Under the pieces are notes generated by a model that ran no database searches, was not told the DNA's origin, and saw nothing but the letters and a program-made list of their open reading frames with translations. Made by a program: the position numbers and the translations under genes. A DNA stretch of 64,000 nt from a virus: positions 27,973 through 91,972 of IMG/VR virus record IMGVR_UViG_3300046820_002290; one strand, written 5' to 3'. Positions 14,929-61,869 of the stretch are shown here, piece by piece (position 1 is the first letter of the stretch; each line of letters begins with the position of its first letter).

Positions 14929-16680
14929 ATGCGCCCTATAATCACTAAAGCCAGTTTGCTTGATGAGCATAGCACTTGGCGAAAATACATTCGAGGCATC
15001 CAGGAATTGATTGTGATGGAGGCTCCGGCATCCATCATCGAGGAATATAAGTATAAGGCTGCTCAAAATTGCTTCCTGGCATTTGCCGATATCATGAAGA
15101 AAGGCGACCTTAAAGTGGTCGCGTTCCACGAAGTGATTGCGTCCGCGTTCGAGGATCTTGCCAATAAACGGTATCGCCGTTTGATCGTATCGTGTCCTCC
15201 ACGATCCGGAAAGTCAATGCTGGCGTCGATGTTTGTGGCGTGGTTGCTAGGTCGTGACCAAATGACCCAGCATATTATTGCGTCCTACGGCCAACAACTA
15301 TCCGGTAAGTTTCATAAAGACACAATCGGGTACCTGAAACACCCGGAGTTTAAGAAGATATTCCCGGACTGGAAGGGGTTCTCCCCCGACTCCAAATACG
15401 ACATGCTTGGTGGCGGTTACATCCTGCCTACCTCCGTGGGCGGTGTGCTTACTGGTTTCACTGCGGGAACGACTAACATTACGAGTCCGGGGGTGGGGGC
15501 TATGATTGTGGACGACCCTCTCAAGGACTCGACTTCCACTGCCGCACTTGAAGCGTTGGAATCATGGTGGGGCGAACAAGCGAGTACTCGACGCACCAAC
15601 AACTGGTGTCAAATGGTAATCGCGACTCGATTCCACCAACATGACTTGCACGGTGTGCTACTAGAGGCAGACGGTGAATATGATGAAGTTGAGAATCCGA
15701 ATGGTTGGCGCTGGGTTAACATTGCTGGACTGATTGAAACGGCAGAGCAACGAGCGAACGACCCTCTTGAACGTGACCTCGGTGAATCTCATTGGCCTTC
15801 AAACACTGCCTTCACGGTCGACATGCTCATGGCTCAGAAGAAGACCATGGGTTCATTTGCTTTCGCGGCTCTCTACCAAGGCAACCCCGTTGCGGCAGAA
15901 GGTCAGATTATCCGGGATAGTTGGATCTCCCGCATTGAGAAACCCGATTGCCCAGAGTTTGACTTAACTTGGTTGGCAGTTGACTGTGCATTCTCTGAAA
16001 AAGAAATGGCAGACGAGACTGCTATTTGCGTAGCGTCTATTTCCCACCGTTTTCCCGGCAAAGTCTATATTCGCGAAATAATCACAGGCAGGCTAGGTTT
16101 TCCAGACCTTATTGCCAAAGTAAAGCATTTATACTCGTTCTACGACGCTCGAGTTCTCTGCATTGAAAAAGCAGCTTCGGGTCAGTCCTTAATTCAGATG
16201 CTCAAGAAGGAGGCGAAGATTCCGATCGAGGAAATGAAACCGCTGAAGTCTAAGACCGTGAGGCTACAGGCAGTTGCCCCACTTATGGAATTTGATCGGG
16301 TCAAGTTTGTCGAGGGGGACTGGATTGACCCCTTTATTAAAGAGTTGACTACTTTCCCTTTCACTAAACACGATGACCGAACTGACGCTTTCACATGGGC
16401 GCTTACGTATTATTCCATGAAGTTAGATACGGTAGATCGGGGCCTCCAGGATGCAATCATTCAAAATAAACGCTTCTTTGGCGAGCTGACCCGGCCCGGT
16501 TTTGGCAATCAGAATGTTTTCCCCAACCTCAGTCGGGGTCGTTTACGTATGTTCCCTGCGGATCATAATTATAACGATCCTGATTACGATTCCGTGAGCG
16601 GGGAAGCGGATCCCCGATCTTCTTTTGCCAGAGGAGTGAGAAGTGGGCAGCGTAACATTGGGTGGGATACAGAGTTGTGA
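14929..16680 (+). CDS. terL: Terminase large subunit
   Basis: Walker A PPRSGKS, Walker B MIVDDP, nuclease LAVDCAFS and HDDRTDA motifs. Confidence 0.95.
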   Translation: MRPIITKASLLDEHSTWRKYIRGIQELIVMEAPASIIEEYKYKAAQNCFLAFADIMKKGDLKVVAFHEVIASAFEDLANKRYRRLIVSCPPRSGKSMLASMFVAWLLGRDQMTQHIIASYGQQLSGKFHKDTIGYLKHPEFKKIFPDWKGFSPDSKYDMLGGGYILPTSVGGVLTGFTAGTTNITSPGVGAMIVDDPLKDSTSTAALEALESWWGEQASTRRTNNWCQMVIATRFHQHDLHGVLLEADGEYDEVENPNGWRWVNIAGLIETAEQRANDPLERDLGESHWPSNTAFTVDMLMAQKKTMGSFAFAALYQGNPVAAEGQIIRDSWISRIEKPDCPEFDLTWLAVDCAFSEKEMADETAICVASISHRFPGKVYIREIITGRLGFPDLIAKVKHLYSFYDARVLCIEKAASGQSLIQMLKKEAKIPIEEMKPLKSKTVRLQAVAPLMEFDRVKFVEGDWIDPFIKELTTFPFTKHDDRTDAFTWALTYYSMKLDTVDRGLQDAIIQNKRFFGELTRPGFGNQNVFPNLSRGRLRMFPADHNYNDPDYDSVSGEADPRSSFARGVRSGQRNIGWDTEL

Positions 16681-31471: not shown

Positions 31472-33490
31472 ATGGCCATCGTTCCGTTTAACCCTAATAA
31501 CGAAGTCATCCCGATTCCCAATAACCCGTTTTATTGGCCCCAAGAATCGGCGTTCCAGACCCCGCAAGGTCCCCTTATCTTTGGGGCAGGCTTCTCCGTT
31601 GATTACAATACCGGTGTCGTAAGTGTTGATCCGGCACCTCCGGCGTCCACGGGTACGGTAACTTCTGTTACCGCTGGCGCTGGCTTGATCACAAGTCCTT
31701 TCGCCGGTATTACAACAGTCGGTCAAGTTTCGCTCGCAACTGTCCCCGGCGTTGTTCCCGGAACTTACACTTATGCGGCGTTTAGTGTTGACTCTTATGG
31801 CCGCATCACATCGGCTGCAAGTGGAGTAGCTCCCGTTCAAACACTAAGTGGAATCTACCCAATCAACGTTACTGGAGCTGCGCCCTCCCTTACTGTATCA
31901 ATCGCTGCCGGAACTACCGCAAACGCGGGTGCCGTTCAGCTGGTTGACAACGTAAGCACCCCGTCCAACACACTCGCCCTGACTGCCAACCAAGGGTACC
32001 TTCTTCAAAACCAAATCAACGCAATTGCTGGAACAGCCAACATCCAATTCCTGGCTGGTACTCTCAACGCTGCCACAGGTAATGTTGTTACTGCGACTGC
32101 CGAAGGTAACACCGCAGGCATCTTGGCTGGTAGTCCCCTGCCTGCCGCAAGCGGCACAAACATCGGTGCTACTCTCCTGATTACAACTGCCGCCACCTAC
32201 ACACCTCCTGGCGGTACTGCGGTTAGCGTAGTTCCTGGCGACCAACTCCTGAGCGACGGCACAAACTGGGTTTACTTCCAGACCGGTTTCCGTGCTCCTT
32301 ACGCCACCACCACCACTGCCGGCATCGTTCGTTACGCCACTGTTGCTGAGACACAGGCACTGGCCGATAATACCATTGCCGTGACACCTTTTGGTCTGTC
32401 CGGAATGGTTGCCTCGACCACTCAGCGTGGTTTCGTTGAGTTGGCTGACGCTGCAGAGACTCAACTGCTTGCCGACACCACTCGTGCTGTCACCCCTGCA
32501 GGACTCGGTACTCTTCAGGCTACCACAACTTCTCGCGGTATCGTTCAACTGAATGATACACTGACAAGCACTTCGACCACGCTGGCCCCAACTGCTCGTG
32601 CGCTCAAACAAGCTTTCGATGAGTCGATTCACAATAACATTATTCAAGCTAACGGCGATCTAATCGTTGGCCAAGCTGCTGCAGACCCTCAAATCCTTCC
32701 AAAGGGTTCGAACGGTCAGGTTCTCACGGTAGACAATACCGCTTCCTTGGGTGTATCTTGGCAGACGCCAATCGCCCCTGAGTCCACTCCGGTTGGCTCG
32801 GTGTGCTGGTTCACAACTGATGATCCTGCCAAGCTCCCCGTGGGCTGGTTGGTTGCAGATGGCTCTTCTTACGGTGTTGACTCTTCCAACCCCTACTATC
32901 CGCTGTACCAAGTAATCGGTACAACTTTCACCCCTCCCGCCGATCCTCCGGGAACTTTCCGTGTCCCCGATCTTCGCGGTCAGTTCATTCGTGGTTGGAA
33001 CGACGCCGGCACTCAAGGTCCTGGAAACCTGGATCCCGGTCGTGCTTTTGGCTCCTGTCAAGCAGACGCCTATCAACAGCACTCACACTCGGTAACTGAT
33101 CCTGGCCACATCCACGCGATTACTGATCCGGGCCACAACCACCTTATTACTGATCCTGGGCATACGCACACTGTTACCGATCCCGGTCATAGCCACCAGT
33201 TCAATGTCCCCAACTCCGAAGTTGTGGGCGATCAAGCTGGCTTCTACGACGGTAACAACAAGCGAGGGAACAGAGGTGCGGGCACTACAAACAGCAGTGC
33301 AAATGTTTCTATCAACAACGCAACAACAGGCGTGACAATCAACACCGCTCTCACCGGTATCACCCAAACAATCATCTGCACCACTGGACTCACAGTTAAT
33401 AACTCTCCCGCCAGCGCTCCGGTTCCCAACGAGACTCGTCCTACAAACTTCTCACTACTCCCTATCATCAAGTACCGGGATCCTGTCTGA
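31472..33490 (+). CDS. Tail fibre with tail-collar domain and TDPGHxH repeats
   Basis: Paralog of 27770; collar motif FRVPDLRGQFIRGW; four TDPGHxH repeats; ends ETRPTN. Confidence 0.85.
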   Translation: MAIVPFNPNNEVIPIPNNPFYWPQESAFQTPQGPLIFGAGFSVDYNTGVVSVDPAPPASTGTVTSVTAGAGLITSPFAGITTVGQVSLATVPGVVPGTYTYAAFSVDSYGRITSAASGVAPVQTLSGIYPINVTGAAPSLTVSIAAGTTANAGAVQLVDNVSTPSNTLALTANQGYLLQNQINAIAGTANIQFLAGTLNAATGNVVTATAEGNTAGILAGSPLPAASGTNIGATLLITTAATYTPPGGTAVSVVPGDQLLSDGTNWVYFQTGFRAPYATTTTAGIVRYATVAETQALADNTIAVTPFGLSGMVASTTQRGFVELADAAETQLLADTTRAVTPAGLGTLQATTTSRGIVQLNDTLTSTSTTLAPTARALKQAFDESIHNNIIQANGDLIVGQAAADPQILPKGSNGQVLTVDNTASLGVSWQTPIAPESTPVGSVCWFTTDDPAKLPVGWLVADGSSYGVDSSNPYYPLYQVIGTTFTPPADPPGTFRVPDLRGQFIRGWNDAGTQGPGNLDPGRAFGSCQADAYQQHSHSVTDPGHIHAITDPGHNHLITDPGHTHTVTDPGHSHQFNVPNSEVVGDQAGFYDGNNKRGNRGAGTTNSSANVSINNATTGVTINTALTGITQTIICTTGLTVNNSPASAPVPNETRPTNFSLLPIIKYRDPV

Positions 33491-44693: not shown

Positions 44694-44746
44694 GGGTTGG
44701 TTGGTTTTCTTTAGCGAGTTTTCCAACCTTCCCAATAAACTCGCTA
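44694..44746 (+). ncRNA. Putative pseudoknot/switch 5' leader RNA of endonuclease gene (copy A)
   Basis: GGTTGG/CCAACC (+GGG/CCC) interleaved with TAGCGAGTTT/AAACTCGCTA; same architecture with compensatory changes at 61260-61307. Confidence 0.65.
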
Positions 44747-44754
44747 CCAGTATT

Positions 44755-45579
44755 ATGCAACCACGTATTTATACGTACAAGATCACGTTTGAAGAGATTC
44801 CTCACTGGTATTGGGGAGTGCATAAAGAGAAGAGATATAGCGATGGGTATATGGGCTCTCCCGTGACTCATAAATGGATGTGGGATTTCTATACGCCGAA
44901 GATTCAGATTTTGGAGTTCTTCCCTTACACAGAAGAGGGATGGAAGCAAGCAAACTTAGTTGAAGACAGATTGATTAAACCAGACTTAAATGACCCGCTC
45001 TGTCTAAATGAGGGTTGCGGAGCTCGAGTTTCCAGGGAAGCCGCACAGCGTGGTGGATACAAGATGAAAGGAGTTCCCAAGACCGGTGAGCACCGCAAGA
45101 AGATAGGTGATGGCAACAGGGGGAAGAAAAGAAGTCCAGAGTACTGTCAGGCTCTTTCCGAACGGAATAAGGGAAGAATTTTAACCGAGGAACAAAAGGC
45201 TCAACGAAGTGCATCCATGCGTCAATTCTACCAAGAAAATCCCGAGGCTAGGCAGAAAAAATCAGAAGAGGGTAGTCAAAGAAAGTGGTATCACAACTCT
45301 GCAACGGGGGAAACTCGCCATTGTGTAGAGGCCCCTTCTCCTGAATGGAAAGAGGGTAGACCAATTGAATACTTAGGGGCCCCATGGTGGACGGATGGCA
45401 AACAAAATAGAAGGTCTCTTGAAAAACCGGGGCCCGAGTGGGAGCGAGGTATAAGCAATCACCCGAGTAAAAGGCGATTCCGGTGCACACTAACCGGGTT
45501 TGTTTCTAGTTCCGCCGGACTCACAAAGTATCAAAATTCACGGGGGATTGACACCTCAAATCGCGTTCGCGTTGAGTGA
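44755..45579 (+). mobile_element. Free-standing GIY-YIG-like homing endonuclease with NUMOD3-like repeats
   Basis: IYTYKITF..WYWGVH..DGYMGS, CLN; EHRKKIG..NRGKKRS repeats; W..DG..N.R...PG..W..G modules. Confidence 0.8.
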
Positions 45580-45628: not shown

Positions 45629-46564
45629 ATGTCCGACAAAAAATACTCGATCTTTACCCACCAGGGTGGATTAGGGAAGTCGATCGCAGCAACCGCTGTG
45701 GCCCAAGCTATCAAGAATAATTTCAAAGACAGAGAACTCATCGTGGTCACACCCTGGCCGGAGTTGTGGGTGAACCTCCCGTTTGTTTACCGGGTTTTTC
45801 CACTCGGCAACACCAGTTACTTTTATGAAGAATTCGTGAGAGACAAGGGTTCTCTCATCTTTGGTAATGAACCATATTACACGCACACCCACATTAATCA
45901 TGAGCTCCCGCTTGCAGAAAGCTGGTGCAAGATGTATCAAATAGAATTCAAAGGCGAAAAGCCGATGATTCGTATCAACAGTGAACAACGTAAGGCAATC
46001 CGTAACTTTTACGAACCCAAGTTCGAGGGTAAAGACCTCCTGATTCTTCATTGCTGCGGGGGCCTCTATCAAAATGAGAAAGCGTTTTGCTGGCAAAGGG
46101 ACATGCCTTATGAGGTAGCCACCAAGGTCGCTAAGCATTTTCAACAGAAGGGAATGTATGTGATGCAGATCACACGACCAGCAAGTTACAAAATCCCGGA
46201 CGTATTTGTGCGAAATGAACAATTATCGCAGACTGAACTCGTAGGCTTGCTGGAACTGTCTTCCAAGCGTCTACTCATTGATTCGAGCCTTCAACACGCT
46301 TCAATGGGCCTCGGTTTACCCTCAGTTGTTCTTTGGAACGCAACCGATCCCTTGCTATTCGGATATCCTTTCCACACAAACATCGTAGCCAAACAGAAAC
46401 CTCACAAGCCATTGCCTGGCGCATTTTTGTTTGATTATAGCTTCGATGGTTCAGAAAATGAGTGGCCCTATGAGGAAGGGGACGAAAAAGACTTGTTTAA
46501 TGTAGACGAGATTATCTCAGCCTTGGAAGCTCAAACTAACGAACCCAAAAAAGGATTCGCATAG
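45629..46564 (+). CDS. Glycosyltransferase, GT9 (heptosyltransferase)-like
   Basis: GGLGKSIAAT...IK...ELIVVT and IDSSLQHASMGLGLPSVVLW motifs. Confidence 0.7.
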   Translation: MSDKKYSIFTHQGGLGKSIAATAVAQAIKNNFKDRELIVVTPWPELWVNLPFVYRVFPLGNTSYFYEEFVRDKGSLIFGNEPYYTHTHINHELPLAESWCKMYQIEFKGEKPMIRINSEQRKAIRNFYEPKFEGKDLLILHCCGGLYQNEKAFCWQRDMPYEVATKVAKHFQQKGMYVMQITRPASYKIPDVFVRNEQLSQTELVGLLELSSKRLLIDSSLQHASMGLGLPSVVLWNATDPLLFGYPFHTNIVAKQKPHKPLPGAFLFDYSFDGSENEWPYEEGDEKDLFNVDEIISALEAQTNEPKKGFA

Positions 46565-46588
46565 TTTGCTTCGCAAACCTGACACCAC

Positions 46589-46615
46589 GGGAGCCGCAAG
46601 GCTCCCTTTCTCTTT
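46589..46615 (+). terminator. Rho-independent terminator
   Basis: GGGAGCC-GCAA-GGCTCCC-TTTCTCTTT. Confidence 0.85.
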
Positions 46616-46621
46616 GGCAAC

Positions 46622-46629
46622 GGGTAAAA
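46622..46629 (+). promoter_or_regulatory. GGGTAAAA putative late promoter
   Basis: Exact motif just after a terminator. Confidence 0.75.
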
Positions 46630-46659
46630 CCCCCATAGCACCTAACCCGTTTGCATAAT

Positions 46660-47203: not shown

Positions 47204-48169
47204 GTGGCTTTGACTCGTGCTCAGCTCTTGAGTGGCGATGGCTCACAAGGATTTGTTCTCCCTGGACAAGTACAAGCAGTCACCGCCGGAACAGGCGTAA
47301 CAATCTCTCCCACAGGTGCTCTGTCGATTAATACGGCAGACCCGGCATTCAACGCATTTATTCGTACTAACGCCGCTGGGGCTTTTAACGGTTATGTCTG
47401 GCCCGCTGGCCCTGGCACGGTCGGTCAGCAACTAACACTGGCTGCAGGCAACGCTCTTGTGTGGAGCGACTCCGACGGCATCCCCTGGACGACCCTCGGT
47501 CAGCTTGTCGTAGGTACGGGCGTAGGCACCGACATTCTGCTTAATGCAGGGGCAGACACTGCGGTGTTGATGGCGGATTCGAGCACTGCCAGCGGCCTAG
47601 CATATAGCGACTCTGTGACGAGCGCGATGCAGGTTCCGTCAGGCACCACTCTGCAGCAGCCTGCCACTCCCTCGATCGGTCAACTTCGCTACAACACCGA
47701 CCTTGACCAGTTTGAAGGATACCTGGGCGCTGTTCCGGCGTGGGCTCCGATTGGCGGTTCTCTCAATCCGGCCACCCTCGCAGAAGCTGCCGCCGGTGTC
47801 TTAACCACCGTCTACTCTTCCCCCGAAACCGCTGTACCGAAAGATGCCTCCGGTATGACCGGTGCTGCCATCCTCCCAGCAGGTACATCCGCACAGCAAC
47901 CGGCAGCCCCGGTCGACGGGATGTTCCGTTTTAATACCACCAACGATGCGTTTGAGGGATACGGTCAGAATCTGACTTCTTGGGAACCGCTGATGCCCAC
48001 GGGTGCGGCGACCGATAAGACTGTTTACCTTAACAACCAGACAATTACAGCGAACTATACCATTCCTACGGCACCCATTATCAAGAATGGTCTTTCCGCT
48101 GGACCCATCACAATTTCCGCTGGCGTCACCGTCACAGTGCCTGCCGGTCAGGCATGGTCGATTGTTTAA
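47204..48169 (+). CDS. Fibre/adhesin connector protein
   Basis: VPKDASGMTGAAILP..G..RFNT module shared with the next three adhesins; C-term ITANYTI..NGLSAGPITISAGVTVTVPAGQAWSIV. Confidence 0.7.
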   Translation: MALTRAQLLSGDGSQGFVLPGQVQAVTAGTGVTISPTGALSINTADPAFNAFIRTNAAGAFNGYVWPAGPGTVGQQLTLAAGNALVWSDSDGIPWTTLGQLVVGTGVGTDILLNAGADTAVLMADSSTASGLAYSDSVTSAMQVPSGTTLQQPATPSIGQLRYNTDLDQFEGYLGAVPAWAPIGGSLNPATLAEAAAGVLTTVYSSPETAVPKDASGMTGAAILPAGTSAQQPAAPVDGMFRFNTTNDAFEGYGQNLTSWEPLMPTGAATDKTVYLNNQTITANYTIPTAPIIKNGLSAGPITISAGVTVTVPAGQAWSIV

Positions 48170-48187
48170 TCCCGTCTTTACCTGAAC

Positions 48188-49588
48188 ATGGCTACTCTTC
48201 AAGTTACAAATTTACAGAATACGGCGGCGACCGTTACCAACGTATCCCTACTCGCTGACGGGACGACAACCCTGGTTCTTAACTCGACGGGAACCGCACG
48301 CACTGGCGGCATCCGCTACAATGCAGGCAGCCTGGAAGTTTACACTTCCGGTGGAGTCTGGGCGCCTATCGGTGGTGGTGGAGGTGGCGTTAGCAGTGTG
48401 ACTGCTTCAGCCCCCCTGGTCTCCAGCGGCGGCGCAACCCCGAATGTTACTGCAACTCTGGCTACTGCAGCTCAGGCGGCGGCTGGAACTAGCAACGTGG
48501 TTCTTTCCACGCCCGAGTTTTCAGTGCCGAAGGATGCTTCCGGCATGACTGGTGCGGCAATCTTACCGTCAGGAACTGACCTGCAACGTGCTGCGATTGC
48601 CAGCCCTGTGGTCGGTATGACCCGCTTTAACACCGATAGCGGGTATGAGGAGGTTTATACCGGAGCAACTAAGGGTTGGCGCTCACTGGATTTCCTATAC
48701 GTCCCTGACCCTTTACCGGCGGACTTAACTATCTCCGCAAACACTACTCTGTCCGGGGTTATTAACTGTAATAACTTCACAGTAAACGCTGGCGTTACTC
48801 TTACAGTTGGTAGCCAGTCCCTCATCATTTATTGCGCCGGTACTGCTACGATTAACGGCACCGTAAATGCAAATGGTGCAGGACCGGTTGGAGGACCTCC
48901 AACTTTCAATAGCGTTTCTTCTGGCTCACTAACTGTAAATGGAGCGTACGGGGTTGGTCCGGGGCAAAGCCGAAGAACTTACAACCCTAGTGACTTTTTA
49001 CCGGGGTCGGGGGGTAATTCTGCCGGTCTTGAGCTAGGGGGCGGTTTTGGAGCGGGTTCAGGAGGTACGAACGGAGGAGGCACCGGTGGTGGAGGATTTG
49101 TCGTCCGGGCTGCCGGCAATATTACCGTATCCGCAACTGGGGTCATTACGGCAAATGGGACTAGCGGGGGTTCAACCGTCGGCGGAAGTAGCGGTTTTTA
49201 CGTAATTCCAGGATCTGGTGGCGGGTCTGGGGGAGCTGTAATCCTGCATTCTGACAAAAACATCACAATGGCGGGATCCATCTCCGTTCAAGGCGGTAGT
49301 GGAGGTGCTGGAACAACAACTTATTCTTCCAACCCTGCCGTAGGAGGTGGAGGTGGAGGTGGAGGTGGTTTTATCATCCTACAAGCTGGCGGAACGCTCT
49401 CAAACACGGGGACTACCTCCCTCACCGGTGGCGGTGGCGGGACCACAAATAATATTGCAACAGGATTTGGTTTGTCTGGCTCCCCAGGAGCCTCGTACGG
49501 GGGTGCCGGGGGCGGCGGTGGTGGATCTGGCGTAAACGCCACAGCGGGTGCAGCCGGTCAATACCTTACTTCCGGAAGTCCTTTTTAA
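48188..49588 (+). CDS. Glycine-rich adhesin (cassette 1)
   Basis: Conserved N-term followed by many polyglycine runs, reminiscent of T-even gp38-type adhesins. Confidence 0.65.
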   Translation: MATLQVTNLQNTAATVTNVSLLADGTTTLVLNSTGTARTGGIRYNAGSLEVYTSGGVWAPIGGGGGGVSSVTASAPLVSSGGATPNVTATLATAAQAAAGTSNVVLSTPEFSVPKDASGMTGAAILPSGTDLQRAAIASPVVGMTRFNTDSGYEEVYTGATKGWRSLDFLYVPDPLPADLTISANTTLSGVINCNNFTVNAGVTLTVGSQSLIIYCAGTATINGTVNANGAGPVGGPPTFNSVSSGSLTVNGAYGVGPGQSRRTYNPSDFLPGSGGNSAGLELGGGFGAGSGGTNGGGTGGGGFVVRAAGNITVSATGVITANGTSGGSTVGGSSGFYVIPGSGGGSGGAVILHSDKNITMAGSISVQGGSGGAGTTTYSSNPAVGGGGGGGGGFIILQAGGTLSNTGTTSLTGGGGGTTNNIATGFGLSGSPGASYGGAGGGGGGSGVNATAGAAGQYLTSGSPF

Positions 49589-49591
49589 GCC

Positions 49592-50389
49592 ATGAAATTA
49601 CTCATCCTCTTTAATAATCAACCGCTGATCTATGATGTTGAAAGCAGCGAAACAACTCAAGAAATTTTATCATCATTAGGCGTCAGTGATCCCTCCTTGT
49701 ACCAGGAGTTTTCAGAATCTGATTTTGATCCCGCCTGTTACAGTTTTGTTTCAGCATTCTCCCTAGCCGAAGGTGTAGTTTCCTTCAATCTGCCGGACGC
49801 CAAGGTTCAAGCTAGCAACACCGTCAAAGTCCAGCATGCCGCAACCGAGCAAGCCGTAACCGCAGGTTACTCCGACACCGTTATCGCATCTCAATCCGGC
49901 CTCCCCGAAGGTGACCGTTTGCCAGAGATTCAGGCTGTTATCAGCGAAGTTAACTTCCTCGCCTACCAACTCTCGGACAACCTCGCCAAAATCGACGCTG
50001 CTACCGACGTAGAAACCGTTTACAACATTGTACAACAGCCTTCTGGCATCATTAATACCGGTCGTGGCGGTGACGGTCAGGCTGGTCCTTTGGATCTCAA
50101 CCTGTCGTACTTCCCCGAACTTAACGATATGCCTGGCTACACTCAGGCTGATCTCGAGTTGTTTATCCCTGGCACCAACACCGTAATCCCCTACGACCCC
50201 GAGCTTCCGGCACCTTACACCTTTGATTCTGCGGGTAACTGCTTTAAGAACAACGACTGGCGCCTAGTCATTCGTTACGCTGGTGGCGGAGCTGTGTTGC
50301 GGACCATCACGGTTGAGGAAGGTAATAACCAGGACGTGGCATGGACTTATAACCCTGCTATTCCCGGTGGTGGTTCACATTCGGCCTAA
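49592..50389 (+). CDS. Putative fibre assembly chaperone (cassette 1)
   Basis: GVSDPSLYQEFSESDFDPACY..AFSL..GVVSFNL, paralogous to 51947; follows an adhesin. Confidence 0.55.
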   Translation: MKLLILFNNQPLIYDVESSETTQEILSSLGVSDPSLYQEFSESDFDPACYSFVSAFSLAEGVVSFNLPDAKVQASNTVKVQHAATEQAVTAGYSDTVIASQSGLPEGDRLPEIQAVISEVNFLAYQLSDNLAKIDAATDVETVYNIVQQPSGIINTGRGGDGQAGPLDLNLSYFPELNDMPGYTQADLELFIPGTNTVIPYDPELPAPYTFDSAGNCFKNNDWRLVIRYAGGGAVLRTITVEEGNNQDVAWTYNPAIPGGGSHSA

Positions 50390-50390
50390 G

Positions 50391-50548
50391 TGCGGTTAGC
50401 GTGTTGGGTTGCCTAACGGCAACCAGGTCGGGTGCTACGCACCCTCCCGCAATTTTCGCAAAATAGTTTCAAACATTTCTCGCACAAAATCCGAGGAGGA
50501 GTGCGCAGCACTCCGACTGGTTGCGAAGCAACCCAATCGCCCACCGCA
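50391..50548. repeat. REPIN/MITE-like inverted-repeat element made of mini-hairpins (element 1)
   Basis: Left arm GGTTGCC-TAAC-GGCAACC, GGGTGC-TAC-GCACCC; right arm GGAGTGC-GCA-GCACTCC, GGTTGC-GAA-GCAACC; arms are imperfect reverse complements. Confidence 0.8.
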
Positions 50549-50575
50549 AACCACCAGCAAACACACTCGACGGCA

Positions 50576-50583
50576 GGGTAAAA
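50576..50583 (+). promoter_or_regulatory. GGGTAAAA putative late promoter
   Basis: Exact motif, 39 nt before start. Confidence 0.7.
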
Positions 50584-50614
50584 CCAACCTAACGGTCCAA
50601 TCACGCGAAATAAA

Positions 50615-51937
50615 ATGAGCTTGCTCTCAGTATCTTCGATTTCCAACCCGAGTGCACCCCAAGCGAATATCTCGCTGAATGCAGATGGCTCGGTGACGTT
50701 GCCTGTTTATACCGGGAGCAGCGCACCGTTGCTCTTCCAGGCGGGGACTCTCTGGTACAACACCACTGGCCCCGCTCTGCAAATTCGTAACCCTGCAAAT
50801 ACCAGCTGGGTGTCTCTCACGCCTCCGGTTGCGGCGACGTTGGCCGAAGCTGCTGCGGGCACGTTGAATACGGTTTATTCCAGTCCGTTGACTTCCGTTC
50901 CGAAAGATGCGAGTGGGATGACTGGAGCGGCTTTGCTACCAACTGGAACAAATGCTCAGCGCACCGCTATTGCGACGCCAGTCGCAGGCATGACTCGTTT
51001 CAACACGGATTACACTCCGGATTCGCTCGAGGTTTACAACGGCACCAACTGGCGTCAAGTTGCTTACGTGCCGAATCCGACTCTGCCTGCTGACTTGACG
51101 ATTTCGGCAAATACAACTCTTACAAACTCGACTTACGTTGTTAACAATCTGACGATTGCCGCTGGCGCTACTGCAACCTTAAGTTCTCAGTCCGTGGTAT
51201 TCATTTGTTATGGCGATGTTAATATTGCTGGGACAATTAATGGTAGTGGGAGTGGTCCCACTGGTGGATTTGCCGCTGCGAGTGGCGGCACCAGTGTTAC
51301 CCCGGTAATTGGGGTCAATATTGGGTCCAAGACCCCAGGGGTTGCTCTTGGCGCTGCGTTACCTTATCAGCCTTTAACAAGTTCAACGGGATCCGGTGGA
51401 ACATCCGGGCAAGTTTTTAGCGGTGCTGGTGGCTTAGGGTTTTCTTCCGGCGGGAATGGAGGTGCGGGTATTCTTATTCGCACCTTAAAAAATGCGACAA
51501 TCACTGGCTCCTTACTTTCGACTGGAACTGCGGCGTCTACCCCAGTCGCTAATGCACCGGTAGGAGTTACAGGTGGAGGTGGAGGGTCTGGTGGCGCCGT
51601 TGTGGTCCATGCTGCCGGGTTAATTAACTTTAGTGGAGTAATTGACGTTTCTGGTGGAGCTGGCGCAGCGGGCGTCATAAATGGAGTCGGAGTCGGAATG
51701 AATGGCGGTGGTGGTGGTGGTGGTGGTTATGTTATTTTAGAGGCTGACTCTGGTTTAACAAATACTGGTACAATCACTCTGACTGGGGGAGCTGCTGGTG
51801 CAACAGCAGGAACTGTAGACGCAAACGGCGGAGGAAACGGCGGATCTTACGGGGGTAAGGGAGGACAACACTACCAAGGCCCAGGACCCACAGCAGGAAG
51901 CGCAGGCGTATTCGCAACAGCAGGAAGCCCTATCTAA
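50615..51937 (+). CDS. Glycine-rich adhesin (cassette 2)
   Basis: Paralog of 48188 (LPADLTISANTTL shared; ends GSPI vs GSPF). Confidence 0.65.
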   Translation: MSLLSVSSISNPSAPQANISLNADGSVTLPVYTGSSAPLLFQAGTLWYNTTGPALQIRNPANTSWVSLTPPVAATLAEAAAGTLNTVYSSPLTSVPKDASGMTGAALLPTGTNAQRTAIATPVAGMTRFNTDYTPDSLEVYNGTNWRQVAYVPNPTLPADLTISANTTLTNSTYVVNNLTIAAGATATLSSQSVVFICYGDVNIAGTINGSGSGPTGGFAAASGGTSVTPVIGVNIGSKTPGVALGAALPYQPLTSSTGSGGTSGQVFSGAGGLGFSSGGNGGAGILIRTLKNATITGSLLSTGTAASTPVANAPVGVTGGGGGSGGAVVVHAAGLINFSGVIDVSGGAGAAGVINGVGVGMNGGGGGGGGYVILEADSGLTNTGTITLTGGAAGATAGTVDANGGGNGGSYGGKGGQHYQGPGPTAGSAGVFATAGSPI

Positions 51938-51946
51938 TTTCGAGCT

Positions 51947-52408
51947 ATGCAAAAAGTTATTGTCATCTACAACGGGGCTTCTCAAGTTTGTCCCCTGCTC
52001 TCCGAGCAAACAGCGGAGTCAATCGCTGCCAGCTATGGCGTTACCGACCCTGCTCTTTACAAAGAGTTTGCTGAATCGGATTTTGATACCGCCTGCTACG
52101 GGTGGTCCAATGCTTTCACCCTTACTAACGGGGTGGTTAGTTTTGATCTGAACAAAGCAAAACAACTTGCGGAAGCAATTGTTAATCTCCAAAGTAACGA
52201 AAAAGCCAAGGAAATTCTGGCCGGTCTCAGCTACGACGTTTATATCGCTCAGTGCTCCCTCCCTAAAGAGCAACGAATCGCAAAGTATCAAGCTGCCATT
52301 AACGCTAATAATGCTCTCGCCATTGAGACCGAAAATCGCGAACAGGCTATTTACGCCGCTAGCACCATCCAAGAAGTGAATGCGATTGTGTATCCGCCGA
52401 AGGACTAA
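51947..52408 (+). CDS. Putative fibre assembly chaperone (cassette 2)
   Basis: Paralog of the 49592 N-terminal region. Confidence 0.55.
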   Translation: MQKVIVIYNGASQVCPLLSEQTAESIAASYGVTDPALYKEFAESDFDTACYGWSNAFTLTNGVVSFDLNKAKQLAEAIVNLQSNEKAKEILAGLSYDVYIAQCSLPKEQRIAKYQAAINANNALAIETENREQAIYAASTIQEVNAIVYPPKD

Positions 52409-52432
52409 TCGCCAACGGCAATAACCGCAACA

Positions 52433-52440
52433 GGGTAAAA
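52433..52440 (+). promoter_or_regulatory. GGGTAAAA putative late promoter
   Basis: Exact motif; context CAGGGTAAAACCAnCCTAACGGTCCAA shared with 50576. Confidence 0.7.
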
Positions 52441-52471
52441 CCACCCTAACGGTCCAAATCTCTATATCCCA

Positions 52472-53428
52472 ATGAGCACTCTCTCAGTCTCTCAGATTCA
52501 GAATACGGCGAGCCCTACGACGAATATCGTCGTGAATGCCGACGGCTCCGTCACGCTCGGTTTGTATCGAACGACTGGCGTTGCGCCAGCGCCGGTCCAA
52601 ACTGGAACCTTGTGGTATGACGTTGGCGGCGCCGGTCTGGTAATCTGGGACGGTGCTGCTTGGGTGAGTGCAGGCGGTGCCGTTAGTAGCGTGTCTGGCA
52701 CAGCCCCGATTGTTTCTTCAGGTGGCGCCAACCCTGTAATTTCGGCAACCTTGGCCACGGCGGCGCAGGCTGCGGCGGGGACGAGCAATGTAGTGCTTTC
52801 TACGCCCGCGTTCAGCGTGCCGAAGGATGCGGCGACAATGACTGGGGCTGCGATTCTACCTGCGGGAACGGACGCACAGCGTGCTGCGATTGCCAGCCCT
52901 GTTGCCGGGATGCAACGGTTTAACACCACGCAAAACTCGATGGAGTATTACGACGGGACTAACTGGCGTGGTCCTTATGAGTATATCCAATCGGCAGGTT
53001 GGTTTGGGGGGAGCCCTGGGGCGATCGCGCAGCAGTTTGTTACCAGCAACACGGAAGCAACTTTCAACCTTAACGCAATTACATTAACCCCAGGAACCTG
53101 GTTAGTAGCTCTAAATTTTTATGCTCAGTGCAGCCCGAATAATCCGGCCGGAGTGTTCTCAATCAACGTAACTTTCCCTTACGCTGCTACCGGTGGGCTT
53201 GCAGATCCTAACATTATCTGGTGCTCCAAACCGGATGGACCGTTTTTCAGGTCAATATTGACCAGTGCCACCCCCTATGAGCTCGACACAGTAATAGCAA
53301 TGAAAGTGGGCCCAGGAAACGTGACCCTGAATCAAATCAAAGGAAGTTGGGGCGATCTGGGATCTTCAGGCGCTGGCCCGCACGACCTTAAGATCAATGC
53401 CTGGTTCACCGCAATGCGAATTGACTGA
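52472..53428 (+). CDS. Adhesin/fibre tip protein (cassette 3)
   Basis: N-terminal half shared with 48188/50615; unrelated C-terminal domain. Confidence 0.65.
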   Translation: MSTLSVSQIQNTASPTTNIVVNADGSVTLGLYRTTGVAPAPVQTGTLWYDVGGAGLVIWDGAAWVSAGGAVSSVSGTAPIVSSGGANPVISATLATAAQAAAGTSNVVLSTPAFSVPKDAATMTGAAILPAGTDAQRAAIASPVAGMQRFNTTQNSMEYYDGTNWRGPYEYIQSAGWFGGSPGAIAQQFVTSNTEATFNLNAITLTPGTWLVALNFYAQCSPNNPAGVFSINVTFPYAATGGLADPNIIWCSKPDGPFFRSILTSATPYELDTVIAMKVGPGNVTLNQIKGSWGDLGSSGAGPHDLKINAWFTAMRID

Positions 53429-53437
53429 TTTAACACC

Positions 53438-53686
53438 ATGAATTACGTAAAAGCTCCTACACCCGGTCGAGTCGTTCGTTACCGTGGTGAGTCCCTGTCT
53501 GACCCCGACTGGTTTGCAGAGGATGTTTCCGCCGATGAGTACGAAGGCGATTACGAATCCCTTGAGAACTACGATGCTCCGGGCAAGCCCTGGGACCCGA
53601 CCCGTTTCCCCAAGCCAACTGCCGCAGAGAAGTTGGCCGCAGCTGGTCTTACAGTAGACGAGCTCAAAGAATTGCTCGGTCTCTGA
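53438..53686 (+). CDS. Small fibre partner/chaperone (cassette 3)
   Basis: Ends AAEKLAAAGLTVDELKELLGL, a tail typical of small phage fibre-adjacent proteins. Confidence 0.55.
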   Translation: MNYVKAPTPGRVVRYRGESLSDPDWFAEDVSADEYEGDYESLENYDAPGKPWDPTRFPKPTAAEKLAAAGLTVDELKELLGL

Positions 53687-53699
53687 TTACTGTTAGCGT

Positions 53700-53903
53700 C
53701 TTCTGTTTGCTTCGCAAACGGTCGGCGCTTCGCGCCTCCGCGAATCTTGCCTCTGGCTCCGGCCAGGGGCTTTTTGCTATCTGCCAAAAATCGCGGGAGG
53801 GTGCGAAGCACCCGACCTGGTTTGCGTAGCAAACCCAACACGCCACCACCCTTATGTTGCCTTGAGGCAACCTATAACGCCTTTGGGTTGCCTTGAGGCA
53901 ACC
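53700..53903. repeat. REPIN/MITE-like mini-hairpin element (element 2) plus two GTTGCCTTGAGGCAAC palindromes
   Basis: GTTTGC-TTC-GCAAAC, GGCGC-TTC-GCGCC ... GGGTGC-GAA-GCACCC, GGTTTGC-GTA-GCAAACC; 53786-53843 is a near reverse complement of 50399-50456. Confidence 0.8.
53749..53775 (+). terminator. Rho-independent terminator inside element 2
   Basis: GCCTCTGGC-TCCG-GCCAGGGGC-TTTTT. Confidence 0.75.
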
Positions 53904-53912
53904 TTAGCCCCA

Positions 53913-53920
53913 GGGTAAAA
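53913..53920 (+). promoter_or_regulatory. GGGTAAAA putative late promoter
   Basis: Exact motif, 33 nt before start. Confidence 0.7.
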
Positions 53921-53945
53921 CCTTCCTAACAGACCCCGCCGCAAT

Positions 53946-55004
53946 ATGCCCCTCCTTACCTTCCCAGTGCCAGCCTCTGACGGCCAACTGTATCCGGCAA
54001 CGCCTTTACCTGGCGAGAATCAGTACCAGTACGACGGACCGAACCAAACTTGGCGCTTGCTGGGAACGGCCACTGGTGTAAGCGCAGGGACTTACGGAAA
54101 CGCCAGCAACGTCGGTCAATTCACGGTAGATGCCACAGGGCGGATTACATCCGCGCAGAATGTTGCCATTGCAAGCGGTGGTATCGGTACAGTAACGCAA
54201 GTTGATACGGGGCTCGGGCTGATTGGTGGCCCAATAACAACCACTGGTATTATTTCCGCATTGCAGGCAACCCCTGTAAGCGAGGGAATCGTATTTGGAT
54301 ATACTGACGGGATATCTGTTTCGTTGGGGGTGAATGCTCTACTTAGTATTTCCGGGGGAATAAACAACACGGCCATCGGCAATGACTCGTTGCTTAACAA
54401 TGGGTCCGGCAACAACAACACTGCAGTAGGAGCATCTGCTCTCTGCGCAAATACGGGGGGATCTCTAAACACCGCCGTTGGCGTAAGCTCTCTGAAGAAT
54501 TCCTCTGGAACCCTAAACACGGCAACAGGGTTCGGTGCCTTAATTAATAGCACTATCGGATCAAACAATGCTGGTTTCGGTGCTGATGCTGGTTTCCGAT
54601 TGACGACGGGAGCCTGCGACACCGCACTCGGGACTTACTCCCTGTTTAACACAACGACTGGAAGTCAAAATGTAGGCGTTGGCTATAGCGCGGGATGCAA
54701 CATTACGACTGGTTCTCAAAATGTTGCGATTGGCCCCAACGTTACGGTTGCTTCGGCAACGGGAAACTGCCAACTTGCCATCGGTTTCTCCGCTACTGAC
54801 AACTGGCTGACTGGGGATAGTACCAAGGCGATTAAACCCGGTGCGGGTATCCTGGACTGCACAAACTCTACCGGAGCGGCAGGACAAGTGCTCATGTCCG
54901 ATGGCGCCAACGCAGTTTGCTGGAGTGGCGGGGTCACAGGCATCTACACGTTTGGTACTTGCACAGTTGTCATTACGAATGGTATTATTACCTCGGTGAC
55001 TTGA
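53946..55004 (+). CDS. Short fibre protein with NTAxG beta-roll repeats
   Basis: NWLTGDSTKAIKPGAGILDC shared with the 35959 fibre. Confidence 0.75.
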   Translation: MPLLTFPVPASDGQLYPATPLPGENQYQYDGPNQTWRLLGTATGVSAGTYGNASNVGQFTVDATGRITSAQNVAIASGGIGTVTQVDTGLGLIGGPITTTGIISALQATPVSEGIVFGYTDGISVSLGVNALLSISGGINNTAIGNDSLLNNGSGNNNTAVGASALCANTGGSLNTAVGVSSLKNSSGTLNTATGFGALINSTIGSNNAGFGADAGFRLTTGACDTALGTYSLFNTTTGSQNVGVGYSAGCNITTGSQNVAIGPNVTVASATGNCQLAIGFSATDNWLTGDSTKAIKPGAGILDCTNSTGAAGQVLMSDGANAVCWSGGVTGIYTFGTCTVVITNGIITSVT

Positions 55005-57095: not shown

Positions 57096-57794
57096 ATGTT
57101 TCACACAGTCTATAATTCGTATGAGTCTAAACCGGAAGGGAGAGATTATATTGGCAAACACAGTACGGAAAACCCTTATGACCAGTATATGGGGTCGTTC
57201 TTGGATGAGAGTTTTGACCCGGACTTCAAAATTATCATGGCGTACGCAAAAACACCAGAAGGGGCTACTTGGTTTGAAATAAATTTTCACAATGTGTTTA
57301 ATGTTGGAGCAAATCCAGAATTTGCGAACCTCGCAAAAGCAGCGAAAATTAAGTTTGACAGGACGGGAGTAAAAAACTCTGCTGAAACCAAGTTAAAGAT
57401 TAAAAAATCTTGGACTGAGGAAAGAAAGCAGAGTATTAGAGAAAAAAGATCAGGCGAAAATCACCCCCTTTGGGGAACTACTCTTTCGGCAAAAACTCGA
57501 AGAAAAATGAGAGAAGCCAAGTTAGGTAAATCAAATCCAAGTGCTACTGAGAAACTTAAGGGAAGAAAACGTCCAGAGCATTCTAAGAAGATGTCTGGCG
57601 AGGGTAATCCCAAAAGCAAGAAAATAGAAGTCACCTACCCGGAAGGCAACATAGAGATTTTCCCATATGTAAAACTTGCAGCAAAAGCCCTAGGGTATGA
57701 CGCCAACACTTTGGGAAAATGGGCCTCTAAAAACTACGTACCTCGCAAGGGTAGGTTAGCTGGTTACGCCTTTCGTTACGTACAGGACTTCTGA
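57096..57794 (+). mobile_element. Free-standing GIY-YIG homing endonuclease with NUMOD3-like repeats
   Basis: MFHTVY...DYIGKHSTENPYDQYMGS (paralog of 5609); SAETKLKI, SGENHPLWG, SAKTRRKM repeats; C-terminal HTH-like AAKALG. Confidence 0.85.
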
Positions 57795-61259: not shown

Positions 61260-61307
61260 GGGGTTGGTGATTTCCTCGCGAGGGTTCTCACCTCCCCAAA
61301 CCCTCGC
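61260..61307 (+). ncRNA. Putative pseudoknot/switch 5' leader RNA of endonuclease gene (copy B)
   Basis: GGTGA/TCACC (+GGGG/CCCC) interleaved with GCGAGGGTT/AACCCTCGC. Confidence 0.65.
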
Positions 61308-61317
61308 AAAGTTTAGA

Positions 61318-61869
61318 ATGAATAAAGAAGTCTCCATCGTGAAGGTGGATTTTAGACCGTACAGGAAAATAGCTCAGGAGAACTGGGGACTTACGGATGA
61401 ACAGATGCAGGGAATGCACGTTCATCACAGAATACCCGTTTCTCGCGGGGGTACAAATGATCCCAGTAATTTGTACGTCTGTAGCGCTTGGTTTCATATG
61501 GGCGTCTGGCATGCTGAAGACGGATTTAACAGCCTAATCCCTCATGCTGTGCAGGGAGGTAGGGTAGGAGGTAAGAAATCCCGTGTTGGCCCCATCTCTT
61601 ACGAAAGAAAGTTTGGAATATTTGGGCTTGACCCGGACAAAAAGAAGGAAGCAGAAGTAAAAGGCGGTAGATCCACTTTTGAACAAAAGACGGGTTGTCA
61701 TGCACCTGAATTCAAGGGAGTAGGAGCCAGAAAAACCAATTCAACCTACTGGGAAGATCCGGATCACCCTGAGCTTGGTATATTGCAGGCCGGTCCGTTA
61801 GCTCGAAGACAAAAGGCGCGGGGCTTACCGCACGGCAAGGAGAACCGCAGAAGAGTAAAGAGCGATTAG
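61318..61869 (+). mobile_element. Free-standing HNH homing endonuclease
   Basis: HVHHRIPVSRGGTNDPSNLYVC..FH...WH; C-term DPDHPELG module shared with 5609. Confidence 0.85.

Follow-up and report, generated by a model that had tools for sequence, protein, structure and literature searches.

Composite intergenic cassettes that couple a terminator with a promoter have been described in T4-type phages as PeSLs (promoter-early stem-loops; Arbiol et al. 2010, PMC2839356; Comeau et al. 2014, PMC4122927), and they are the closest known kind to the two elements considered here. These elements, E1 (positions 50391-50548) and E2 (53691-53844), are spacers of about 150 bases separating tail-fibre genes in a 64,000-nucleotide (nt) stretch of viral DNA, hereafter the window, which corresponds to bases 27973-91972 of the 91,972-bp IMG/VR contig IMGVR_UViG_3300046820_002290. 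Each of them carries four mini-hairpins arranged as two inverted arms. With a probability of roughly 60%, E1 and E2 are composite terminator-plus-promoter boundary modules that serve as seams for the exchange of fibre cassettes and not as jumping elements; they would thus function like PeSLs but are not members of that group by sequence.

In modules of this kind, the terminator and the GGGTAAAACC box that follows it would insulate separately promoted fibre cassettes from each other. The arms, of about 60 nt and far better conserved than the neighbouring genes, would act as homology linkers for cassette exchange, duplication and deletion and, being inverted repeats, could also let the module interior flip, as comparison with relatives shows for E1. 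The mini-hairpins would be retained as nucleic-acid structures, most likely formed in DNA. Tail-fibre cassettes set phage host range and their clean swapping is only partly understood; at this locus the seams are visible. The contig, whose completeness was estimated by CheckV at about 41%, is a fragment from a relative of Synechococcus phage S-CBWM1 (Aokuangvirus), and its large terminase (14929-16680) has its top match among isolated phages in S-CBWM1, at 56% identity. The lineage bearing the modules is that of S-CBWM1-related, mostly freshwater cyanophages.

Architecture of the proposed boundary modules

The canonical order of the parts, in gene direction, is stop codon, beta arm, spacer, intrinsic terminator, alpha arm, GGGTAAAACC box and next gene. 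The beta arm is composed of two mini-hairpins of 5-8 bp with a GGTC joint, has the outer flank GCGTTCTCT and the inner flank TCCGCGAATCTT, and lies after the stop codon, with a conserved spacer of 9-13 nt leading to the intrinsic terminator. The alpha arm, placed 3′ of the terminator, mirrors the beta arm with the inner flank AAAATCGCGGGA and the outer flank CAACACGC. Its distance to the box varies between 9 and 77 nt, and the alpha arm was rejected as a fixed-geometry promoter element on account of this spacing. The parts of E1 and E2, with the hairpins of each element numbered H1 to H4, are the following:

50393-50452, + strand: E1 left arm, alpha type in forward orientation, chimeric; linker AGGTC, inner flank TCCCGC
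50407-50424: E1 H1, GGTTGCC-taac, left arm
50430-50444: E1 H2, GGGTGC-tac, left arm
50453-50489, − strand: E1 interior, inverted relative to gene direction
50490-50547, + strand: E1 right arm, alpha type; linker GACT, outer flank CAATCGCCCACCGC
50498-50514: E1 H3, GGAGTGC-gca, right arm
50519-50533: E1 H4, GGTTGC-gaa, right arm
50576-50585, + strand: GGGTAAAACC promoter-like box, 30 nt 5′ of the ATG at 50615
53691-53748, + strand: E2 left arm, beta type; linker GGTC, inner flank TCCGCGAATCTT
53705-53719: E2 H1, GTTTGC-ttc, left arm
53724-53736: E2 H2, GGCGC-ttc, left arm
53749-53775, + strand: E2 intrinsic terminator, GCCTCTGGC-tccg-GCCAGGGGC followed by TTTTT, with one U.G wobble pair on the sense strand
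53786-53844, + strand: E2 right arm, alpha type; inner flank AAAAATCGCGGGA, linker GACCT, outer flank CAACACGCC
53799-53813: E2 H3, GGGTGC-gaa, right arm
53819-53835: E2 H4, GGTTTGC-gta, right arm
53856-53903, + strand: two H1-like palindromes GTTGCC-ttga-GGCAAC (53856 and 53886), a 31-nt direct repeat
53913-53922, + strand: GGGTAAAACC promoter-like box, 33 nt 5′ of the ATG at 53946

E2 preserves the canonical succession of beta arm, terminator and alpha arm, followed by the two extra H1-like palindromes and then the box, while E1 is an alpha/alpha element with a chimeric left arm and with no functional + strand terminator left. The linkers read (A)GGTC in the left arms and GAC(C)T in the right arms. 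A sequence profile search of the 92-kb contig recovered exactly four arms, those of E1 and E2, and short perfect hairpins were about twofold enriched across the whole contig. When folded as DNA, every arm by itself forms its two mini-hairpins on either strand. In the DNA folds the outer GCG of the unit could also pair with its inner CGC as a closing helix, but several copies do not keep this helix and it was discarded. The palindromes at 53856-53903, placed between the E2 alpha arm and the box, resemble E1 H1, and their loops break the T..C/G..A rule described below. It was also observed that beta arms with the GGCGC stem can form an alternative 6-bp hairpin, TTCGCG-cctc-CGCGAA, overlapping H2 and the inner flank (53729-53744 in E2, and at the same place in the related contigs L022, L029, L031 and L044); this fold excludes that of H2 and may be incidental.

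A sense-oriented terminator, with its stem and T-run, was found in 10 of 12 full elements. An independent terminator scanner placed its top matches at E2 (53749-53770) and at 46589, and gave none in E1; the mini-hairpins themselves are devoid of U-runs. The two kinds of stem also differ in their pairing, given that U.G pairs account for 13 of 114 pairs in the terminators (11%) and for 0 of 330 in the mini-hairpins (Fisher p = 9e-9), and that the terminator wobbles occur in the sense orientation only. Consequently, the terminators look like RNA structures of the sense strand, whereas the mini-hairpins have been kept pairable on both strands. The terminators of this phage group (12490-12530, 53749-53775, L022 and L027-L044) share a CCTC(C/T)GG...CC(A/G)GGGG stem, nearly always with a U.G wobble whose U lies in the 5′ half, and they look homologous and not merely analogous.

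Oriented right arms are nearly all followed by a GGGTAA[AG]A box, the exception being L032. Searched as GGGTAAAA[ACG][CT], the box has 28 occurrences in the contig (window positions 2253-61886), all of them on the + strand and none on the − strand. Every one is intergenic, mostly 25-45 nt 5′ of a start codon and often 1-4 nt past the preceding stop codon; (G/T)(C/T)AAC(C) commonly precedes the box, and no Shine-Dalgarno sequence is evident. In S-CBWM1 the box is found nine times in forward and once in reverse orientation, for example 5′ of PhoH-like and BNR-repeat genes. No σ70-like site was found in or beside E1 and E2, and the box is probably a lineage-specific, possibly late, promoter or leader signal.

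Further features of the window that relate to the modules are these:

46564-46578, + strand: solo H1-type mini-hairpin GTTTGC-ttc-GCAAAC, touching the stop of the open reading frame (ORF) 45629-46564
46589-46616, + strand: intrinsic terminator GGGAGCC-gcaa-GGCTCCC with a T-rich tail, next to a GGGTAAAACC box at 46622-46631
50615-53686, + strand: fibre-like cassette or cassettes between E1 and E2, with genes 50615-51937, 51947-52408, 52472-53428 and 53438-53686 and a box at 52433
52409-52432, + strand: weak possible scar of a lost module, GCCAACGGC, resembling the beta-arm outer flank of L022 and L028, a likeness that spans just about 10 nt

Conservation of the mini-hairpins and the probable level of their action

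The arm family was searched for by means of a degenerate pattern for the double-hairpin unit in IMG/VR, in metagenomes and in 185,579 prokaryote genomes, one per species. A total of 31 unique arms was gathered from the window, one IMG/VR contig (L022) and about 15 related metagenome contigs, several of which come from freshwater-lake sets. The prokaryote genomes gave chance matches only (n = 3, L045-L047), for which reason an origin of the arms from host repetitive extragenic palindromes (REPs) was rejected. Arm-specific scans of IMG/VR likewise revealed nothing beyond chance matches, and a strict H2 pattern gave a single chance match (L021). A search of Rfam returned no family at E ≤ 1, ruling out mimics of CRISPR repeats and known RNA motifs.

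The pairing of these arms is strikingly strict. In 30 units, positions 1-6 of H1 and 1-5 of H2, counted from the loop, all form Watson-Crick pairs, with no G.T, even as up to four pair types occur per stem position; the 31st arm (L029:118-176) has one non-Watson-Crick closing pair and lies within a visibly damaged element. In the gap-free alignment of the H2 core, every position was paired (100%). Changes there were double-sided in all 17 cases, and the covariation score of 0.69, compared with 0.16 for shuffles, was reached by none of 500 of them. Pairing was scored through structure-anchored counts and gap-free cores, since RNAalifold, run on a MAFFT alignment of the units, misaligned the variable-length stems and returned no pairs. 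The perfection of the stems is not an artefact of selection, because a sequence profile blind to pairing added no complete arm whose stems were imperfect, other than the decayed copies of L024. In that more distant contig, a cluster of imperfect H1- and H2-like hairpins (L024:860-950; for example GTTGCC-taac-GGCAAg and GGCTGC-tcc-GCgCC) appears to represent decaying copies of the family. The loops read T-N(1-2)-C in 59 of 60 cases, which is G-N(1-2)-A on the opposite strand. The sole exception (L030:768-830) has an outer hairpin with 'tac' where others have 'gta', next to a hairpin that obeys the rule, and suggests a loop inversion within the palindrome.

The covariation across relatives upholds the proposal of a first-pass annotation of this DNA, made from the sequence alone, that E1 and E2 belong to a genuine family of repeats, in which the loops are of the GNA type and changes in the stems compensate each other. 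The inverted arms, paired hairpins, loops, linkers and compensated stems it had described in both elements were all recovered. So were the solo hairpin at 46564, the palindromes near 53856 and 53886, and the near reverse complementarity of the E1 left and E2 right arms, which is 84% between 50416-50466 and 53777-53827. The wider arm search for which it had called located four arms on the contig and the remainder in the relatives listed above. What it had overlooked was the canonical terminator of E2 and the GGGTAAAACC box that follows the elements.

Mini-hairpins of the GCGNAGC and GCGNNAGC types are extra-stable as DNA, their RNA forms being much weaker (PMC13037366), and the loops of the arms fit the corresponding rule for extra-stable d(C-GNA-G) and d(C-GNNA-G) mini-hairpins. 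Structure at the DNA level is the likelier reading of the hairpins, held at about even odds, because of the loop rule, the Watson-Crick-only pairing and the conservation of the alpha arm, which equals that of the beta arm despite its position behind the terminator. A role in RNA only was considered rather unlikely; here the arms would be stabilisers of 3′ untranslated or intercistronic regions, processing sites for RNase E or RNase III, or termination helpers, and recombination would be incidental. Such a role would suit the beta arm, placed directly past stop codons at its fixed distance from a bona fide terminator, and the conserved AU-rich spacers (AAUCUU, AAUUUU) that adjoin the hairpins. 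Moreover, the whole element can be folded as a long RNA hairpin (z = −6.5 for E1 and −9.6 for E2, equalled by 0 of 200 shuffles), and no terminator separates the alpha arm from the preceding gene in L028 and L042. However, the alpha arm lies beyond a canonical terminator and is conserved like the beta arm (98-100%), the mini-hairpins lack the G.U pairs found in neighbouring terminators, and the sense RNA of the beta arm would present U..C loops. To our knowledge, U..C loops in RNA have no stabilising role. In addition, the two arms of one element usually have unlike stems (GGCGC and GGGTGC in E2, for example), which indicates that local hairpins have been maintained and a long arm-to-arm helix has not. 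A long inter-arm helix of the RNase III type was rejected on these grounds, and the loss of inter-arm complementarity argues against selection for it in RNA. That RNA mini-hairpins are much weaker than those of DNA (PMC13037366) also counts against this role.

If the hairpins act in DNA, they might do more than join homologous sequences. It was tentatively considered that the GNA arms are cis signals at the DNA level, extruded from the duplex or formed on transient single strands, and read by a phage protein (a nuclease, a nickase, a primase or a recombination mediator) that starts recombination or repair at cassette borders, a reading we hold to be improbable on present evidence. Were it true, the modules would represent a dedicated, structure-guided shuffling of receptor-binding cassettes, with the terminator and promoter riding along, in place of passive homology.

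A quite unlikely alternative is that the arms are initiation signals in DNA, either paired single-strand (primase entry) or origin signals of the ssiA/ssiB and G4 types, or hairpin promoters of the N4 type. Their loops do fit the GCGNAGC/GCGNNAGC motif of the G4/St-1/alpha3 origins, ssiA and the N4 early promoters (PMC13037366), the geometry of the arms is like that of ssiA and ssiB, inverted repeats that carry hairpins and lie on complementary strands (PMC8567376), pairing is strictly Watson-Crick on both strands, and the cumulative GC skew has a weak, broad minimum at about 46-54 kb. Nevertheless, two full modules follow each other at 3.3 kb here and at 0.9 kb in L030, flanking single genes, which is implausible for origins; their centre is a GC-rich terminator and not an AT-rich unwinding region or iterons; the distance from alpha arm to box is variable; and synthesis templated by the GNA strand would head for the terminator or proceed antisense to the genes. 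No match to a single-subunit RNA polymerase (PF00940) or a RepB′-type primase (PF16793) was found on the incomplete contig; both are weak negatives, and the PF00940 search gave no signal in control genomes either.

Module junctions across related phages

The behaviour of the junctions among relatives supports the reading of the modules as seams. L022 is syntenic with the window at 45.6-61.3 kb, and at its junction before the homologue of the gene at 53946 the beta arm is identical to that of E2 at 44 of 44 nt, although the genes upstream of it are unrelated and identity in the flanking proteins is 55-65%. Similarly, one locus was found in three versions (L029, L031 and L044) with 93-100% identity between their arms. 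Among them, identity is 40-73% over the last 150 nt of the upstream gene, L031 having a different gene, and the downstream gene is 58-64% identical over its first 200 nt and 90-94% over the next 200 nt. Near-identical alpha arms (the E2 right arm compared with those of L042 and L028) stand 5′ of non-orthologous genes.

The number of modules also varies. In L036, L030 and L033, the related phages lacking the E1-E2 cassette, a single module stands between a 49592-like and a 53946-like gene, in place of the E1, 3.3-kb cassette and E2 of the window. The cassette genes are paralogous, in tandem, to those of 47204-50389 upstream of E1 (48188-49588 matches 50615-51937 at 41% over 419 amino acids, and 49592-50389 matches 51947-52408 at 38%). 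Furthermore, the E1 interior matches the interiors of L036 and L030 in reverse only (scores of 61 and 67 compared with 32 and 24; 38 of 41 nt), and the reversed match takes in the 'X' segment and the terminator tail, which is now on the wrong strand. This state would be the expected product of recombination or template switching between the inverted arms, followed by terminator decay. L029 has lost one arm and half a terminator, akin to E1, and in L028 the arms of the module are parted by about 1 kb of ordinary genes.

Inversion could in principle be enzymatic, with the arms as sites of an unseen site-specific recombinase, like integron attC or like those of shufflons and invertases, that inverts or exchanges the E1-E2 cassette. 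The E1 left and E2 right arms are inverted repeats bracketing the cassette (the 84% match extends over 51 nt), they are structured and palindromic with conserved flanks, as attC is, and an inversion has occurred in the E1 interior. This explanation is nonetheless most unlikely, given that no tyrosine recombinase (PF00589) was matched on the contig, that the arm copies vary beyond what is usual for recombinase core sites, and that the core order is GTT...AAC (outer flanks GTTAGCG...(G)CAAC), as opposed to the RYYYAAC...GTTRRRY of attC. The cassette genes, all co-oriented with the genome, moreover have + strand promoter boxes of their own. Because the sites lie between genes, inversion would yield no new fusion proteins, unlike in Gin/Cin or shufflon systems.

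The first-pass annotation had combined two proposals: that the elements bracket adhesin cassettes and could promote their exchange, duplication or inversion, and that they are non-autonomous elements of the REPIN or MITE (miniature inverted-repeat transposable element) type, moved as single-stranded DNA hairpins by HUH enzymes. The first proposal was supported, since the elements do border fibre-like gene cassettes and the mosaic junctions, the single module as opposed to module-cassette-module, and the inverted E1 interior mark them as sites of exchange, duplication, deletion and inversion. The second, whether the enzyme is RAYT, of the IS200/IS605 type or another transposase encoded outside the contig, was not, and is very unlikely. 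Inverted arms of palindromes in extragenic positions, the near-identical arms before non-orthologous genes in different phages, and the existence of solo arms and decayed copies (L022, L040, L024) would be consistent with mobility, and DNA-type mini-hairpin loops are suitable substrates for HUH enzymes. The arms, however, number only four in 92 kb and are confined to one 3.5-kb stretch; the copies within the genome are old and diverged, with compensatory changes, and not near-identical; and no copies were found in the 185,579 prokaryote genomes searched, with IMG/VR yielding one other contig only. Within an element the arms are not complementary to each other, they can be separated by about 1 kb of genes, and they are always tied to a stop codon and terminator or to a promoter box. 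Neither target-site duplications nor direct repeats flank E1 and E2, and no GTAG-type REP head motif was found. In agreement with the first-pass remark that no transposase or recombinase was visible in the window, the incomplete 92-kb contig as a whole gave no match to Y1_Tnp (PF01797) or to an integrase (PF00589).

Several points weigh against the interpretation of E1 and E2 as boundary modules with DNA-level arms. S-CBWM1 has the box and lacks the arms, which makes the arms an add-on of a sub-lineage, outside the basic punctuation of genes, and shows that this punctuation does not need them. The promoter and terminator functions of the modules are predictions from sequence, and high arm identity beside diverged genes could be produced by purifying selection alone. 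Stems of 5-7 bp may shun wobbles for the sake of stability, in which case the Watson-Crick-only pattern is no proof of a role in DNA, and the alpha arm might enter transcripts through read-through, or in cases such as L028 and L042 that have no terminator 5′ of it. With an identity of only 40-65%, the flanking homologues do not settle whether the E1-E2 cassette was inserted here or deleted elsewhere. Finally, a dedicated enzyme could be encoded beyond the recovered part of the genome.

Nearly every gene of the contig lies on the + strand, and from about 6.7 to 55 kb the window holds mostly fibre-like genes, the large ones with Pfam fibre repeats, collar, GH18 and S74 chaperone domains; around E1 and E2, matches to PHROG tail-fibre and virion proteins are weak and Pfam domains are absent. 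A blastn search with 49.5-54.5 kb against 50,697 phage records gave no match, and no relatives of the gene 49592-50389 were found in IMG/VR. Beyond 55 kb lie DNA-metabolism genes (a DnaQ-like exonuclease, ThyX, a FEN-like nuclease, and HNH and NUMOD3 proteins), among which a NUMOD3-motif protein (57096-57794) and an HNH protein (61264-61869) are further candidate free-standing homing endonucleases. In L026, a GIY-YIG homing-endonuclease gene (982-1785, − strand; Pfam E = 2e-9) stands between a beta arm (1881-1946) and an alpha arm (917-978), and a homologue of the window ORF 44701-45579 lies directly upstream of the L029 module; module junctions seem to be preferred places for free-standing homing endonuclease genes.

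Relatives with arms, half-arms or no arms, together with the cultured S-CBWM1, which has the box without the arms, constitute a natural experiment that could test the effect of the hairpins on recombination or termination.

Relation to described systems

Among systems that share the hairpins or the inverted arrangement, REPs and REPINs with their RAYT (Y1 HUH) transposases are similar in being extragenic, in having short imperfect palindromes as an inverted doublet with a spacer, and in occurring in solo and doublet forms. The modules differ from them in their very low copy number, in their location in a phage genome and in the absence of a RAYT and of the GTAG head motif from what was found. 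Moreover, REPINs keep a long hairpin, whereas inter-arm pairing is not conserved in the modules, whose arms are bound to terminator and promoter positions. MITEs are likewise set apart, as the modules show no target-site duplication, no near-identical copies and no transposase on the contig.

The hairpins of single-stranded DNA initiation sites (G4/St-1/alpha3, RSF1010 ssiA/ssiB and N4 vRNAP; PMC13037366, PMC8567376) resemble the arms in their G-N(1-2)-A loops closed by C-G and their short GC-rich stems, and the copies of ssiA and ssiB are also paired in inverted fashion on complementary strands. In contrast to these sites, the modules lie in a terminator and promoter context of structural genes, several close together, with no AT-rich or iteron origin. 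The geometry of the N4-type hairpin promoter fits that of the module hairpins, many of whose loops have 4 nt as opposed to the 3 nt of N4.

Coliphage RB43 (NC_007023) has a parallel arrangement, with two modules per genome of about 150-170 nt (32540-32740 and 103640-103840), located between rnh/gene 55 and gene 3/ORF200, which bear two GNA/TNC mini-hairpins of the GCGAAGC type on each side of the centre. Their sequence is unrelated to that of E1 and E2, their stems are of 2-4 bp, their centre is AT-rich and they lie between divergent genes. The polarity is also opposite, with the GAA loops of the + strand in the left arm in RB43 and in the right arm in the window.

The fullest likeness is to the PeSLs. 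In both cases, a conserved intergenic motif of about 100-150 nt joins a terminator stem-loop to a promoter (predicted here), is concentrated in a variable region where it flanks accessory or variable genes, and provides exchange points between otherwise unrelated sequences, with chimeric motifs marking the crossovers. Also shared is the correspondence of two motifs round a cassette in one phage to a single motif in a relative (PMC2839356, PMC4122927). The differences lie in the promoter, which in PeSLs is early and σ70-like and here would be a lineage-specific GGGTAAAACC box before structural (late) genes; in the location, between early ORFans for PeSLs and between tail-fibre cassettes for the modules; and in the evidence, which for PeSLs includes mini-circle and reporter data and for the modules comes from sequence. 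The two inverted arms of Watson-Crick GNA-type mini-hairpins, which permit inversion of the interior, have no counterpart in PeSLs. The modules would take the PeSL idea beyond early accessory genes in T4-type coliphages, to structural genes for receptor binding and to an unrelated, poorly studied cyanophage lineage in which a symmetric layer of DNA-type mini-hairpins has been added.

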